Assembly (NCBI GenBank): GCA_048940445.1
Contig: JBHLON010000012.1
Span: forward strand, 17,426-81,425
Source: Promethearchaeota archaeon
Lineage (GTDB): Archaea; Asgardarchaeota; Lokiarchaeia; Sigyniarchaeales; SOKP01
Direction: 5' to 3'
DNA: 64,000 nucleotides
Shown: piece by piece, positions 37,236-56,122 of the stretch
How positions within the stretch are numbered: the first letter of the stretch is position 1
How the letters are laid out: each line of letters opens with the position of its first letter
The notes under the pieces: generated by a model
Told to the model about the DNA's origin: nothing
Seen by the model: the letters and a program-made list of their open reading frames with translations, nothing else
Databases searched by the model: none
Made by a program: the position numbers and the translations under genes

Positions 37236-37286
37236 ATCTTACTCATCACACCTTTTTTATTAAAATCGTTTCCTTTAGATAAAAAA

Positions 37287-38642
37287 TCATTTCAATTCTT
37301 GACCTTTTTTACCTTTCCCTTTTTTTCTTTGAATTTCTTCTTCTAAACTCTTCTTGACTCTCATTACATAATCGTACACATTTTTGTTAAATTTTTTTAA
37401 ATCTTCAGAACTCCAAATTTCCGAATTCCGGAATGGAAATTCCATTCCAAATTCTCTACTAATATTTATCTCGAGCTCTCTGGCTTTTTCTTTTAACTGT
37501 TCCCAATTCATATTCGCCCCTAAAATAGGCATAATGTTTATATTGTGCCTAAATGCTAATTTTAATTCATTGATACAATCTTTTGAATAAGCGGAATTTT
37601 CTGTGAAAAAGATAATTAAAAGTTGACTTCGTGGAACTCTTGTCTCCATCCAATCATCGATATTTCCAACCATCCCTTCCTCACAATAATCTACTTTATA
37701 AATCCCTTTCTGTTTTTGTAAATATTTAGCAAGATTACTAATTTGATATTCATCATAATCTGTAATAGCATGACTGATAAATACTCGGATCCCTCTTTGT
37801 TTTACTTTCTTTCGTATAGCAAGTGAAATAGCCGCTATAATTGTTAATACAACGACACCTATTATAATAGCAGTTACTACAATTTGCCAATCATTAGGTT
37901 GAGCCGTAAATTGTTTCACTATTTGCAATTCTTTCCAACTCATATTACCATCGGTATCGTTTGCATAAAAGTTGATTTTAAACATTCCTAGAGGTATACT
38001 CTCCCAGATCACATAGTCTAAATATTCAGCTGTATCATTCTGGAGAAATTCCTTGAATGAAAGGGCACCAGATACATTATACCATATTTTATCTAAATTT
38101 TCATCGAATACAATTACCTTTATTAAAGGAGGTTCATCCCAATAAGTACTCGCCAGAGGTAACTGAATAATGATATTAGGAAAAATATCCAAAACATTCA
38201 CTGTTATAATAACTAAGATTGAAGTATAATTTGTTTTTTGAGCAGAAATGTTTAAATTGTTAATTCCTAAATTCAAACTGGCTGTGTTTATTAATACATA
38301 ATAACTATTAAGCCCTTCTGTAAGTAAATCATTAATTGTTTCACCGGTTAATCCAACCGTAGCCCCGCTAATAAAGTTTCCAGTTAAAATCTCTGAATAA
38401 ATAATTGTTATATTTAAAATCTCATTATAATCAATTTCGATATATTTTGTTTGAGTCTCATTTTGACTGTTTAGAAATATTGTTGTAATATCAGCTTCTG
38501 TAAAGGATGATTGGGGGTCTTCTATCGCTTTGTTAGATTTTTCCTGATTTATATTATTTAAGGGAAAAAACTTTAATAGACTTAAAAGCAACACTAGACT
38601 TAATAAAGTTAAGAAGAATACTATAATTTCCTTTTTCTCCAT
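37287..38642 (-). CDS. Single-pass membrane protein: Ig-like ectodomain + TM + cytoplasmic TIR domain
   Basis: N-terminal signal/anchor; beta-rich ectodomain with WY..FYANDTDGN unit; TM IVVTAIIIGVVVLTIIAAISLAI-RKK; TIR VFISHA..SQLLIIFFTENSAYSKDCINEL..IMPI. Confidence 0.85.
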   Translation of the reverse strand: MEKKEIIVFFLTLLSLVLLLSLLKFFPLNNINQEKSNKAIEDPQSSFTEADITTIFLNSQNETQTKYIEIDYNEILNITIIYSEILTGNFISGATVGLTGETINDLLTEGLNSYYVLINTASLNLGINNLNISAQKTNYTSILVIITVNVLDIFPNIIIQLPLASTYWDEPPLIKVIVFDENLDKIWYNVSGALSFKEFLQNDTAEYLDYVIWESIPLGMFKINFYANDTDGNMSWKELQIVKQFTAQPNDWQIVVTAIIIGVVVLTIIAAISLAIRKKVKQRGIRVFISHAITDYDEYQISNLAKYLQKQKGIYKVDYCEEGMVGNIDDWMETRVPRSQLLIIFFTENSAYSKDCINELKLAFRHNINIMPILGANMNWEQLKEKARELEINISREFGMEFPFRNSEIWSSEDLKKFNKNVYDYVMRVKKSLEEEIQRKKGKGKKGQELK

Positions 38643-38748
38643 TGAATTTCGTGTTTATCTTGTATAATTCTCTATAAATACACTTTATATCTAACTATTA
38701 TTTAAGTCTTTTTAATCAAGTATTTCAGGATTAAGACTCTTTTTATTT

Positions 38749-53128: not shown

Positions 53129-56122
53129 TTAAATATAATTTTTCCGTTTTCTTAGAATTATTATCATACTCACTCCAATGATTCCCATTATTATTAAAAT
53201 ATCATATCCTGGAATACCTGGTTGTGGAGGCGGAGGTATTTCTACTAATTCTACTAAAATTGAATTAACATTTTCAATGTTCCCTACATTATCAATTGCA
53301 TAGTATGAGATATTATAATAACCAAAAGCGTATCCAGATAAATCAAATTCCCCAGTATAATCATTCCAAGTTGAATCATTAATTTTATATCTAATTACAA
53401 AAACTCCTGACCCTGTCCCATCGCTTGCTGTTAATGTGAAAATCGTAGAAACATTTACATCAACAGTTCCACTGTGAGGTATGAATAATATTTGCGAGCT
53501 AGGTACTTCAACATCTTTATATATAGTTACGTCTGCAAAAGCTAAAGATCCTAAAGTATCATTTGCATAAAATCTAATAATGACTGGACCAGTAGCGCCT
53601 ATTTTGTCCCACTCGGTTTGATCAATAGTTCCTGTTAATCCGGTAAATGTAATGTTAGTAATCCCACCATCTATGGTATACCATGTAGAATTCAAGTTTA
53701 ATTCGAAAATAGAAATATCAAAGTTTGGAGCACTACTCCCAAAAAATTCATTTGCAAGTGGCGCATTTATTGTAATCTGAGGCATACTAGTATCCTTAAT
53801 GATTAGCACTCCTACAGAACCTATATTACCAGCAGAATCATTTGCATAGAAAATCAAAGTTAGGGCTCCATCAGAAAGTTTATCCCATTCTGTTTGATCA
53901 ACTGTTCCTGTTAATCCAGTAAATATAATATTAGTCACTCCCCCATCTATTGTGTACCAAGTTGTATCCAAATTCGGTTCAACAATCGAAATATCAAAAT
54001 TTGGAGCTATATTTCCAAAATTTTCTTCATGTGTTGGTACATTAATTACAATCTGTGGATTAGTAGAATCTTTATTTATAACTACGTCTTTATGACCAAT
54101 ATTTCCAATTGTATCATTTGCATAGAAAGTCAAGGTCACTGGAACATCTGAAAGTTTGTCCCATTCAATTTGATCGATTGTTCCTGTTAATCCGGTAAAT
54201 GTAATATTAGTCACTCCCCCATCTATAGTATACCAAGTATAATCCAAATTGGGTTCGACAATGGAAATGTCAAAATTTGGAGCATTACTTCCAAAAAACT
54301 CGTTTGTAAGTGGAGTATTTATTGTAATCTGGGGGATACTAGAATCTTTATATATATTCACATCAGCATGTCCAATATTACCCACAGAATCATTTGCATA
54401 GAAAGTTAAGGTTACTGGAACGTCTGAAAGTTTATCCCATTCAGCTTGATCGATTGTTCCTGTTAATCCGGTGAATGTAATGTTATTCACTCCCCCATCT
54501 ATGGTATACCATGTAGAATTCAAGTTTAAATCGAAAATATAAAGGTCAAAGTTTGGAGCACTGCTTCCAAAAATTTCTGAATTAAGCGGCGCATTTATTG
54601 TAATTTGTGGATCAGTAGCATCTTTATATATATTCACATCTGCATGTCCAATATTACCAGCAGAATCATTTGCATAGAAAGTTAAGGTTACTGGAACATC
54701 TGAAAGTTTATCCCATTCAATTTGGTCGATTGTTCCTGTTAATCCAGTAAATGTAATATTAGTAATTCCCCCATCTATTGTATACCATCTAGAATCTAAA
54801 TCTGAATCTATAATTGAAATGTCAAAATTTGGAGCTGTACTGCCAAAAATCTCATTTTCATTAGGTGAATTTATACTTATTTGAGGAATCAAGTTATATT
54901 TTACTAAACACATATTATCATCGCTTTCTCCTCCTACATACACATTTTCATTAGAGTCTAAAGCAATCCCATAAGCTGCTGTATAATCTTTATCCCATCT
55001 AACAAAGCCTTGGGAATCACCAGACGTATTGTATTTTAACAAACCCAGATAAGAATTTACGGTCATCATATTATCTTGTCCAGTGTAACATGCAAGATAA
55101 ATATCCTCTGATGAATCTAGTACAATATCTCTAGCTCTAACTTCTCTATTCCCCCAATATCCAATTTCATTCCAAGTTTGATTATACAACTCAACCCCTA
55201 AAGAGTCAAATTTTACTAAAGCTACACTAGGATAATAAGTTGTTGGATGTGTTCTCTCTCCAGCAATATACACATTATCAGAAGAATCAAAGGCGATGCC
55301 ATATGCATAATTGTTGCCAAAAGCACCCCACGTGCGATTCCATAATAATGTACCTCCGCTATTATATTTTACAATATTCCACTGAAGGCTTCCAATGAAA
55401 CTTGTAGTAGTTCCGACCATATATACATTATCAGAATTATCAGTACCAACAGTATAAGCAATATCACTGCCACTTAAACCCCATGTGCGATTCCATTGTA
55501 ATGTTCCTGCATTATCATATTTTATTAAAACCATATCTTCATTTCCAGCGCCCCAACTTTCTGTTTCTCCCACTAAATACACATTATCTGATGAATCCAC
55601 TGTTATCCCATATATTCTCTCATAATTGCTCCCACCCCAGATACGAGACCATTGAATAGTTCCTAGGCTATTATATTTAACCAGAAATAAATCAAAAGCA
55701 CCCAATCCCAAAGTACCATATCCTCCCATATAAACATTATCAGAAGAATCAATTACTACTCCAAAAGATCGTACATCATTAACTCCATCCCATATACGTG
55801 ACCATATTATGTTTCCTAATGTATCATATTTTATTAAAGCAGCCTGATATCCAACGTAGATATCCCATGTACGTCCTGTAATATAAATAGCGTCTGAAGA
55901 ATCAATAGCAATATCAGAACCCACTGCACCCTGTCCCATTAAGTCCCACGTACGATTCCATTCATATCCAACTTCCTCATCCAAGGATGCTATTGATAGT
56001 ATTTGTCTTCGTTCACTTTGATATCTATCATATAGATTGATATCACTTATTAAAGCTGGATAGAATGAAAGCATCGTGCATACTATAAGTAACCCTAAAT
56101 AAACCGTACTTCTTTTTTTCAT
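53129..56122 (-). CDS. Large surface protein: signal peptide, SBBP-like beta-propeller, five Ig-like repeats, Loki-CTERM-like anchor
   Basis: About 7 DSSDNVY..WNRTW blades; repeated WYTIDGG..FYAND; C-terminal PGIPGY-TM-RKRK. Confidence 0.85.
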   Translation of the reverse strand: MKKRSTVYLGLLIVCTMLSFYPALISDINLYDRYQSERRQILSIASLDEEVGYEWNRTWDLMGQGAVGSDIAIDSSDAIYITGRTWDIYVGYQAALIKYDTLGNIIWSRIWDGVNDVRSFGVVIDSSDNVYMGGYGTLGLGAFDLFLVKYNSLGTIQWSRIWGGSNYERIYGITVDSSDNVYLVGETESWGAGNEDMVLIKYDNAGTLQWNRTWGLSGSDIAYTVGTDNSDNVYMVGTTTSFIGSLQWNIVKYNSGGTLLWNRTWGAFGNNYAYGIAFDSSDNVYIAGERTHPTTYYPSVALVKFDSLGVELYNQTWNEIGYWGNREVRARDIVLDSSEDIYLACYTGQDNMMTVNSYLGLLKYNTSGDSQGFVRWDKDYTAAYGIALDSNENVYVGGESDDNMCLVKYNLIPQISINSPNENEIFGSTAPNFDISIIDSDLDSRWYTIDGGITNITFTGLTGTIDQIEWDKLSDVPVTLTFYANDSAGNIGHADVNIYKDATDPQITINAPLNSEIFGSSAPNFDLYIFDLNLNSTWYTIDGGVNNITFTGLTGTIDQAEWDKLSDVPVTLTFYANDSVGNIGHADVNIYKDSSIPQITINTPLTNEFFGSNAPNFDISIVEPNLDYTWYTIDGGVTNITFTGLTGTIDQIEWDKLSDVPVTLTFYANDTIGNIGHKDVVINKDSTNPQIVINVPTHEENFGNIAPNFDISIVEPNLDTTWYTIDGGVTNIIFTGLTGTVDQTEWDKLSDGALTLIFYANDSAGNIGSVGVLIIKDTSMPQITINAPLANEFFGSSAPNFDISIFELNLNSTWYTIDGGITNITFTGLTGTIDQTEWDKIGATGPVIIRFYANDTLGSLAFADVTIYKDVEVPSSQILFIPHSGTVDVNVSTIFTLTASDGTGSGVFVIRYKINDSTWNDYTGEFDLSGYAFGYYNISYYAIDNVGNIENVNSILVELVEIPPPPQPGIPGYDILIIMGIIGVSMIIILRKRKNYI
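53520..54895 (-). repeat. Five tandem ~276-bp (92-aa) intragenic repeats
   Basis: EWDK-encoding segments recur about every 276 nt (~53607, 53883, 54159, 54435, 54711) with high DNA identity. Confidence 0.9.

Follow-up and report, generated by a model that had tools for sequence, protein, structure and literature searches.

A 64,000-nucleotide stretch of DNA from a Promethearchaeota archaeon (contig JBHLON010000012.1; hereafter the window) encodes a 451-amino-acid protein, P0001, in which two immunoglobulin (Ig)-like modules, a single transmembrane (TM) helix and a TIR domain follow one another as in the animal interleukin-1 (IL-1) receptors. The Ig-like modules are predicted to face outward and the TIR domain, which keeps the conserved Glu of catalytic TIR domains, to lie in the cytoplasm. 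The likeness to the animal receptors is one of architecture, reached convergently by domain shuffling, and not of orthology. We infer that the protein is an outside-in sensor in which clustering would trigger NAD+ cleavage by the enzyme-type TIR domain; the chances that this functional reading is right or wrong appear about even.

TIR domains are common to bacterial, plant and animal immunity. To our knowledge, the prokaryotic TIR systems characterized so far respond to cytoplasmic cues, and the joining of an extracellular sensor to a TIR domain through one membrane helix is a hallmark of the animal Toll/IL-1 receptors. The protein described here, hereafter the receptor, is apparently an unpublished case of a catalytic-type TIR domain coupled to a sensor in a new architecture. 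If the functional reading is correct, this Asgard family would show that receptor-type TIR signaling can arise in prokaryotes, and would provide a simple setting in which to study how a TIR enzyme is turned on by binding outside the cell. At 451 residues, the receptor is the smallest intact family member seen, and is therefore a practical construct for assays of topology, ligand binding and NADase activity.

Topology, folds and the TIR domain

The order of the domains was established by hydropathy, Pfam searches and AlphaFold2 (AF2) modeling, and agrees with that proposed in an earlier reading of the DNA letters (hereafter the original prediction): signal or anchor, two beta-rich domains, TM helix, basic stop-transfer and TIR domain. 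Hydropathy was scored by the Kyte-Doolittle method in a 19-residue window (KD19), and selection as the ratio of nonsynonymous to synonymous substitution rates (dN/dS). The parts of the gene are as follows, with model confidence given as the predicted local distance difference test (pLDDT).

37287-38642, minus strand: whole open reading frame (ORF) of the ectodomain-TM-TIR protein P0001, intact, with an ATG start (Pfam; orthologues of 92% and 69% identity; dN/dS 0.25-0.34)
38562-38642, minus strand: N-terminal Lys-rich n-region and hydrophobic core, residues 1-27, predicted Sec signal peptide or uncleaved signal anchor (hydropathy)
38187-38507, minus strand: module A, residues ~46-152, Ig-like beta-sandwich, membrane-distal (AF2 model ma6f7b2095876, pLDDT 97, eight strands; Foldseek)
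37905-38186, minus strand: module B, residues ~153-246, Ig/FN3-like beta-sandwich, membrane-proximal stalk (AF2 pLDDT >85; Foldseek)
37815-37892, minus strand: TM helix, residues ~251-276 (KD19 up to 3.15; helix 251-281 in the model)
37785-37814, minus strand: basic stop-transfer/linker RKKVKQRGIR, residues 277-286, of which RGIR enters TIR strand beta-A (six K/R)
37413-37790, minus strand: TIR domain, residues ~285-410 (Pfam TIR_2; VIA-align)
37566-37568, minus strand: codon of E359, the Glu of DCINEL in DCINELKLA (translation; invariant in the family)
37293-37409, minus strand: long C-terminal helix with Lys-rich tail, residues ~412-450 (modeled helix; dN/dS 0.09-0.30)

Two hydrophobic segments were found, at residues ~5-27, after MEKKE, and at ~253-276, where KD19 reaches its maximum of 3.15. 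In this genome the receptor is the sole TIR ORF with a membrane segment, with no more than 1.45 reached in the other four. The K/R-bearing hydrophobic N-terminus recurs in relatives, including WD40 forms read from TTG or GTG starts, and the linker behind the TM helix carries four to seven K/R in all TM-type relatives examined. The original prediction of an N-terminal signal or anchor holds as far as the Lys-rich hydrophobic segment is concerned, and is compatible with either a signal peptide or an uncleaved anchor.

The region between the two hydrophobic segments is acidic (27 D/E versus 10 K/R) and has no Cys. It contains eight N-glycosylation sequons where shuffled sequences give 3.57 (P~0.015), while the cytosolic part contains one, with 0.85 expected. 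All eight ectodomain sequons are kept in both the 92% and the 69% orthologue, and the single cytosolic one is not; the many sequons noted in the original prediction are thus both enriched and conserved. The genome also encodes an STT3/AglB oligosaccharyltransferase. Because the positive-inside residues, the Lys-rich N-terminus, the acidic Cys-free middle part, the sequon pattern and the presence of STT3/AglB all point the same way, the Ig-like modules are predicted to lie outside and the TIR domain inside, as originally proposed and whether or not the N-terminal segment is cleaved. The Ig-like modules are probably N-glycosylated.

Evidence for the folds came from two AF2 models. The full-length model, built from 37 sequences, is confident for a beta-sandwich at residues ~150-245, for the helix at 251-281, for the strands and helices of residues 285-410 and for the long C-terminal helix; module A falls below 50 pLDDT in it. 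A dedicated model of module A was therefore considered, based on an alignment of 18 paralogous copies from this genome, the orthologues and repeat proteins. Foldseek matched this model, at E ~1e-3, to oligosaccharyltransferase subunits, the BT4663 C-terminal domain, titin, CD147 and the PD-L1 Ig domain; animal Ig domains appear at E ~2e-3 amid many unrelated beta-sandwiches. The top matches, at E 4.5e-4 to 1e-3, are lumenal beta-sandwiches in chains F and G of 6s7t, both of them subunits of the human oligosaccharyltransferase; this likeness between a model and known structures is probably generic fold similarity. Module B matched 1ug9, 3pdd and 9kvu. No Pfam family of the Ig superfamily matches either module at E <= 1. 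Both modules are therefore Ig-like in fold alone, being generic prokaryotic beta-sandwiches rather than members of the Ig superfamily: the "Ig-like" label of the original prediction is right for the Ig/FN3-like fold and does not extend to family membership.

The C-terminal domain matches Pfam TIR_2 (PF13676) over residues 287-376 with 32.7 bits against a cut-off of 28, with relatives scoring 27-37 bits. In the AF2 model this part has a flavodoxin-like alpha/beta TIR fold at pLDDT ~90. Structural alignment with VIA-align gave the highest score to the RPS4 TIR (Z 14.6, root-mean-square deviation 2.5 A over 136 residues), followed by RUN1 (14.5), SPARTA (13.8), SARM1 (13.7) and AbTir (13.4); some 40 other TIR entries score above Z 12. 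Foldseek likewise puts the domain firmly with TIR domains. Enzyme-type TIR domains thus top the structural ranking, with a margin of just 1.7-2.3 Z over receptor and adaptor TIR domains. Sequence searches of the PDB with the TIR domain were weak, reaching E 0.013 to 9m0n with the single sequence and E 0.23 to Cat1 with a TIR-only profile. A profile of the whole family was discarded for this purpose, having matched only WD40 proteins, via the propeller-bearing members.

The Glu that the original prediction had singled out in DCINEL, E359, does not vary among 13 family members, nor in an alignment of eight TIR domains alone or in the LRR-TIR (leucine-rich repeat) sister clade. In the model, the helix that carries it (354-365) runs between strands 341-346 and 369-374. 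E359 aligns with the Glu of P0049, whose TIR domain belongs to another clade (24% identity, E 5e-11); its alignment with the S-D-W-C-W-D-E-L stretch of Cat1 is weak (E 0.23). We take the motif S-x-D-C-I-N-E-L to resemble the plant catalytic motif S-x-W-C-L-x-E-L. The position of E359 also matches that described for E75 (PMC7075850). By its sequence and its modeled fold the TIR domain is classed as catalytic, and NAD+ cleavage is predicted.

Distribution of the family and exchange of sensors

The Ig-Ig receptor has two orthologues, of 92% and 69% identity, and close relatives are few, amounting to about 15 clusters among 5.8 billion proteins. Consistent with the Asgard origin originally proposed, ten of ten loci in species-representative genomes lie in Asgard metagenome-assembled genomes, labeled by their submitters as Promethearchaeota/-ia, Hodarchaeota or Odinarchaeota. 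The TM-TIR family is recognized by a TIR clade with the signature RGIRVFISHA...NIDDWM...S-x-DC-x-x-EL behind a TM helix. A TIR-only profile found the clade in 33 of 68 genomes of the same family and in three of seven of the neighboring family, and did not find it in the 226 genomes sampled from 28 other Asgard families. The TM-anchored forms have the highest profile scores and are all in the genus of the window, where 11 of the 28 sampled genomes, this one included, carry one to several; copies of the clade as a whole reach seven per genome. The receptor scores 243.9 bits on the profile and is the single match in its genome (G000). Among the other clade members examined, most are soluble LRR-TIR proteins that lack a hydrophobic stretch in front of the TIR domain. 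The survey of Asgard genomes proposed with the original prediction yielded a genus-level set of TM-TIR proteins, with swapped sensors.

The conserved unit of these proteins is the TM helix, the basic linker and the TIR domain, and the sensors in front of it differ. The junction is conserved in L049-L059, and the TM helix, linker and Glu motif are kept in most TM-type loci examined; one copy with an in-frame stop misses the Glu pattern. The receptor and its two orthologues carry two Ig-like modules. Other members carry an LVIVD propeller with two copies of module B, an LVIVD propeller with Kre9-like Ig domains, LVIVD with TSP3 repeats (1071 residues), WD40/PQQ propellers, or a polytopic domain of seven to eight TM segments (P0015, L013, L058 and L059). 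In a tree of TIR domains that covered the TM and LRR forms of this clade, the Ig-Ig form is nested in the LVIVD clade (support 100/100) and the LRR forms group apart (82/99), with deeper branches unresolved. Because the Ig-Ig form nests inside the LVIVD clade, the simplest reading of the sequences is that the distal sensor was exchanged and the module B stalk, TM helix and TIR domain were retained.

The material for the outer part appears to come from the same lineage. An exhaustive search with residues 30-250 returned 1008 proteins, 145 of them below 1e-30 and most of them 1000-3300 residues long, in which modules A and B recur up to 26 times. The repeats register as Pfam Big_13, Big_7 and Big_3_4, often beside NosD/beta-helix domains. 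This genome alone holds 21 copies of module A in ten ORFs and 53 copies of module B in 17 ORFs. Because the modules recur in this way across the large proteins of the genome, the outer part of the receptor is best described, at the level of sequence, as assembled from stock repeats of its lineage.

The largest carrier of module B is a 2405-residue ORF with 22 tandem copies (G000:C20:35121-42335, plus strand), and the window itself holds a 997-residue ORF at 53132-56122 on the minus strand (G000:C104:70557-73547) with five. Module B has been combined with at least two TIR clades. The second case is the metagenomic P0049 (1279 residues), in which three module B copies, 54% identical to that of the receptor, occur with repeat and beta-helix domains; it also has a TM helix and the TIR domain of the other clade (24% identity).

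The receptor gene is maintained by purifying selection. Against the 92% and 69% orthologues, respectively, dN/dS is 0.34 and 0.25 for the whole gene, 0.28 and 0.12 for the TIR domain, 0.41 and 0.33 for module A, and 0.50 and 0.27 for module B; the C-terminal helix gives 0.09-0.30. Selection on the ectodomain (0.27-0.50) is thus looser than on the TIR domain (0.12-0.28).

Some members of the clade are broken. Three sequences carry one in-frame TAA each (G065:C4:19633-20082, G267:C285:10810-11265 and G030:C68:1384-1812) and are probable pseudogenes. P0007 (344 residues; L006:6001-7035, plus strand) starts within a module B repeat, has no signal sequence and follows a stop 15 nucleotides upstream; it is probably a truncated LVIVD-type member. 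TM-TIR genes also stand in tandem arrays of two or three, at L007, L009, G065 and G231.

Proposed function, gene neighborhood and rival explanations

In the outside-in reading, the distal module would bind a ligand that is multivalent or fixed to a surface, for instance a virus particle, the envelope of a foreign or partner cell, or a polymer. Binding would gather several receptor molecules in the membrane, and their clustered TIR domains would form an active oligomer. Oligomerization activates catalytic TIR domains of the class that includes plant NLR TIRs, SARM1, SPARTA, AbTir and Cat1, and every active TIR domain known to us requires assembly into an oligomer. Glu359 would then cleave NAD+, leading either to local depletion or to a nucleotide signal of the ADP-ribose type, of which a Nudix protein would be a plausible downstream reader or degrader. 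In an extended version of this reading, receptors with exchangeable ectodomains would cluster on an external ligand, their TIR domains would make an ADP-ribose-type nucleotide at the membrane, and a Nudix membrane protein of CorA shape would read that nucleotide or remove it. Such an Asgard pathway, a prokaryotic parallel to receptor-TIR immunity that arose independently of animal Toll-like and IL-1 receptors, is doubtful.

The suggestion of a Nudix partner comes from relatives of the receptor. One neighbor recurs across non-syntenic loci of the family, a protein of ~575 residues that has two hydrophobic helices (residues ~381-434) and ends in a Nudix domain whose GX5EX7REVXEE box is intact. 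Its gene adjoins TM-TIR genes or arrays in L006-L009, G065, G077 and G117, convergently at some loci and divergently at others. An ESM Atlas search with its N-terminal 440 residues returned unnamed clusters, in one of which the CorA family makes up 11% of the members (score 0.84), so that the CorA likeness is a lead only. An unrelated Nudix protein of 146 residues, also with an intact box, is encoded 100 base pairs behind the 69% orthologue on the same strand (L017:7434-7874, plus strand), an orthologue preceded by three to four small unannotated ORFs. The Nudix association is a lead for the family rather than a feature of the receptor locus, and would be compatible with a TIR product of the ADP-ribose type.

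At the receptor locus itself, an ABC ATPase and an ABC-2-type permease are encoded upstream on the same strand, and a DUF2804 protein downstream in convergent orientation. The 92% orthologue has identical surroundings, which the 69% orthologue lacks. The ABC-2 transporter pair was considered as a partner and rejected; it is missing beside the 69% orthologue and therefore was not treated as one. Two signals read directly from the DNA flank the gene:

38673-38678, minus strand: TTTATA, a TATA-box-like hexamer ~33 nucleotides 5' of the ATG, weak evidence in AT-rich DNA
37281-37286, minus strand: TTTTTT (T6), an oligo-T terminator-like run right behind the TGA stop

Given the hexamer, a possible promoter of its own, and the T6 run, the receptor gene may form a separate transcription unit.

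Several observations weigh against the outside-in reading. No PADLOC defense model matches the receptor, and diversifying selection was not detected in its ectodomain by dN/dS at the level of whole domains, with two orthologues. No operon partner is conserved at the locus; the ABC pair recurs only beside the 92% orthologue. In this genome the CorA-like Nudix gene lies apart from the receptor and is split at contig ends into pieces for residues 1-363 (L069; G000:C55:3-1091, minus strand) and 484-573 (L070; G000:C65:8382-8651, minus strand), with no TIR gene beside either piece on C55 or C65. It also occurs in 56 of 71 genomes of the family, so that its presence alone is uninformative, and co-occurrence with the TIR family was dropped as a test. 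NADase activity requires the conserved Glu, but the Glu alone is insufficient for it. Finally, TIR domains that act as scaffolds score only ~2 Z below the enzymes: Hydra TRR-2 12.9, MAL 12.4 and MyD88 12.3.

These last scores also favor a scaffold receptor, in which the TIR domain would be non-enzymatic in vivo and would nucleate TIR-TIR assemblies with soluble TIR proteins, in the way that Toll-like and IL-1 receptors use MyD88 and MAL, thereby passing the signal to other effectors. Such proteins are available for recruitment in the genome, as a Ras-GTPase-TIR fusion and a TIR protein encoded beside a SLOG gene, and in related genomes soluble proteins join LRR sensors to a TIR domain of this clade. 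However, the Glu is invariant across all sensor types, the closest structural neighbors are catalytic TIRs, and the Nudix neighbors of relatives suit a nucleotide product. Moreover, the other TIRs of the genome belong to different clades, given the single G000 match to the clade profile, and a scaffold is an unlikely explanation. It is unlikely that the protein is instead a membrane-anchored abortive-infection NADase triggered at or in the membrane, by virus entry or membrane damage, with Ig-like modules that merely anchor or space it, as in Rst. A bacterial defense system with a one-TM TIR protein exists and is among the systems commoner in Asgard genomes (PMC11291487; 10.1101/2024.10.26.620412), and a polytopic membrane domain takes the place of the ectodomain in P0015, L013, L058 and L059. 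Yet PADLOC gave no match, there is no adjacent gene for a two-TM partner, and the ectodomain is under purifying selection with its sequons conserved. Most relatives have large ectodomains of ligand-binding type, propellers and Ig arrays, that are swapped between paralogues, which is hard to square with an inert outside.

A role in sensing cell-cell contact or adhesion would have the ectodomain pair with copies of its own modules on the giant surface proteins that kin or partner cells display, with the TIR domain reporting the contact. Modules A and B are indeed stock repeats of the large proteins of the genome, with up to 22 copies in the 2405-residue ORF, and they recur in over 1000 large proteins elsewhere. 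The gene is nevertheless patchy even inside the genus (TM-type in 11 of 28 sampled genomes), and copies broken by in-frame stops occur in G065 and G267, a pattern that suits conflict genes better than core cell biology; this role is quite unlikely. It is highly improbable that the topology is inverted, with the TIR domain outside, or that the gene is decaying and unexpressed. Inversion is opposed by the strong positive-inside signal behind the TM helix, the Lys-rich N-terminus, the restriction of sequon enrichment and conservation to the Ig part, and the cytoplasmic location of NAD+. Decay is opposed by the intact ORF, dN/dS of 0.25-0.34 against two orthologues, and the TATA-like and oligo-T signals that flank the gene. 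Taken together, the original prediction is partly supported: what it observed was accurate apart from the strand, which is minus, its reading of architecture and convergence was right, and the function that it proposed is putative.

Two other TIR loci of the genome were noted. A 578-residue fusion of a Ras/Roc-type GTPase with a C-terminal TIR domain (L001:1321-3057, minus strand; G000:C89) matches Pfam Ras at 2.7e-47 and TIR_2 at 5.7e-15, with a middle part of ~260 residues unannotated. On C71, a 390-residue cytosolic TIR protein is encoded directly upstream of a 211-residue SLOG cluster-3 protein in a Thoeris-like pair (L002:307-2184, minus strand; TIR_2 1.4e-15 and a weak ThsB_TIR match; SLOG PF18180 4.4e-40). 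The locus is a TIR-rich island, with two further small TIR-like ORFs at C71:7212-7496 and C71:9381-9509, within 4 kb.

Comparison with known systems

The catalytic TIRs RPS4, RUN1, RPP1, SARM1, SPARTA TIR-APAZ, AbTir and Cat1 align with the receptor TIR domain at Z 13.4-14.6 over ~130-145 residues and have a Glu at the same motif position as E359, although sequence identity is just 14-20%. They are cytosolic and coupled to intracellular sensors (NLR, Argonaute, CARF, ARM), whereas the TIR domain described here is joined to a membrane helix under an extracellular domain.

A literature search for archaeal ectodomain-TM-TIR proteins, with subscription journals outside its scope, found no description of one and only a listing of the Rst 2TM/1TM-TIR system. 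Rst is an anti-phage system (Rousset et al. 2022, as presented in 10.1101/2024.10.26.620412 and PMC11291487), and Leao et al. reported that the one-TM TIR system is relatively frequent in Asgard genomes (PMC11291487). In Rst, as here, one TM helix anchors a prokaryotic TIR protein, but the receptor adds a folded ectodomain of 220 residues and an N-terminal signal or anchor. NCBIfam models gave no match to the receptor, and neither did PADLOC models at E <= 0.1, a set whose inclusion of Rst models is unconfirmed; no two-TM gene is adjacent.

The proposed logic, with a TIR-made signal derived from NAD and another protein to read it, would parallel that of Thoeris, with its ThsB TIR and ThsA-type effector. 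Unlike Thoeris, the receptor has an extracellular sensor part and no adjacent effector gene, its neighbors being the ABC-2 pair and DUF2804, and PADLOC matched neither the receptor nor its non-ABC neighbors. Relatives have a membrane Nudix protein as candidate partner, instead of a SIR2/SLOG or Macro protein. Toll-like receptors differ in that the receptor has no LRR, and the LRR-TIR relatives in its clade have no TM helix before the TIR domain.

The architectural parallel is with the IL-1 receptor family, whose members have one or three Ig domains, one TM helix and a cytosolic TIR domain (PMC7075850). The order of parts and the predicted topology are the same, with beta-sandwiches of Ig-like fold on the outside joined through one TM helix to a TIR domain on the inside. 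There are also differences. The Asgard TIR domain retains a catalytic-type Glu and ranks closest to enzyme TIRs, with receptor and adaptor TIRs within ~2 Z of the top-ranked enzymes by VIA-align. We know of no MyD88-type adaptor in the Asgard TM-TIR setting. The Asgard family swaps its sensors and was found only in a narrow Asgard lineage. Because the membrane form was found only in one genus-level group and the Ig modules are not of animal type, the receptor does not support direct ancestry of the eukaryotic receptors. The modules are kin of the prokaryotic repeats Big_13, Big_7 and Big_3_4 and have no Ig-superfamily Pfam match; their 21 and 53 copies in the large proteins of the genome, and more than 1000 carriers elsewhere, give no support to a reading of the IL-1 receptor-type layout as homology. 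Because these modules are stock repeats of giant proteins, and not animal Ig domains, the resemblance to IL-1 receptors is architectural and convergent, as the original prediction had supposed.

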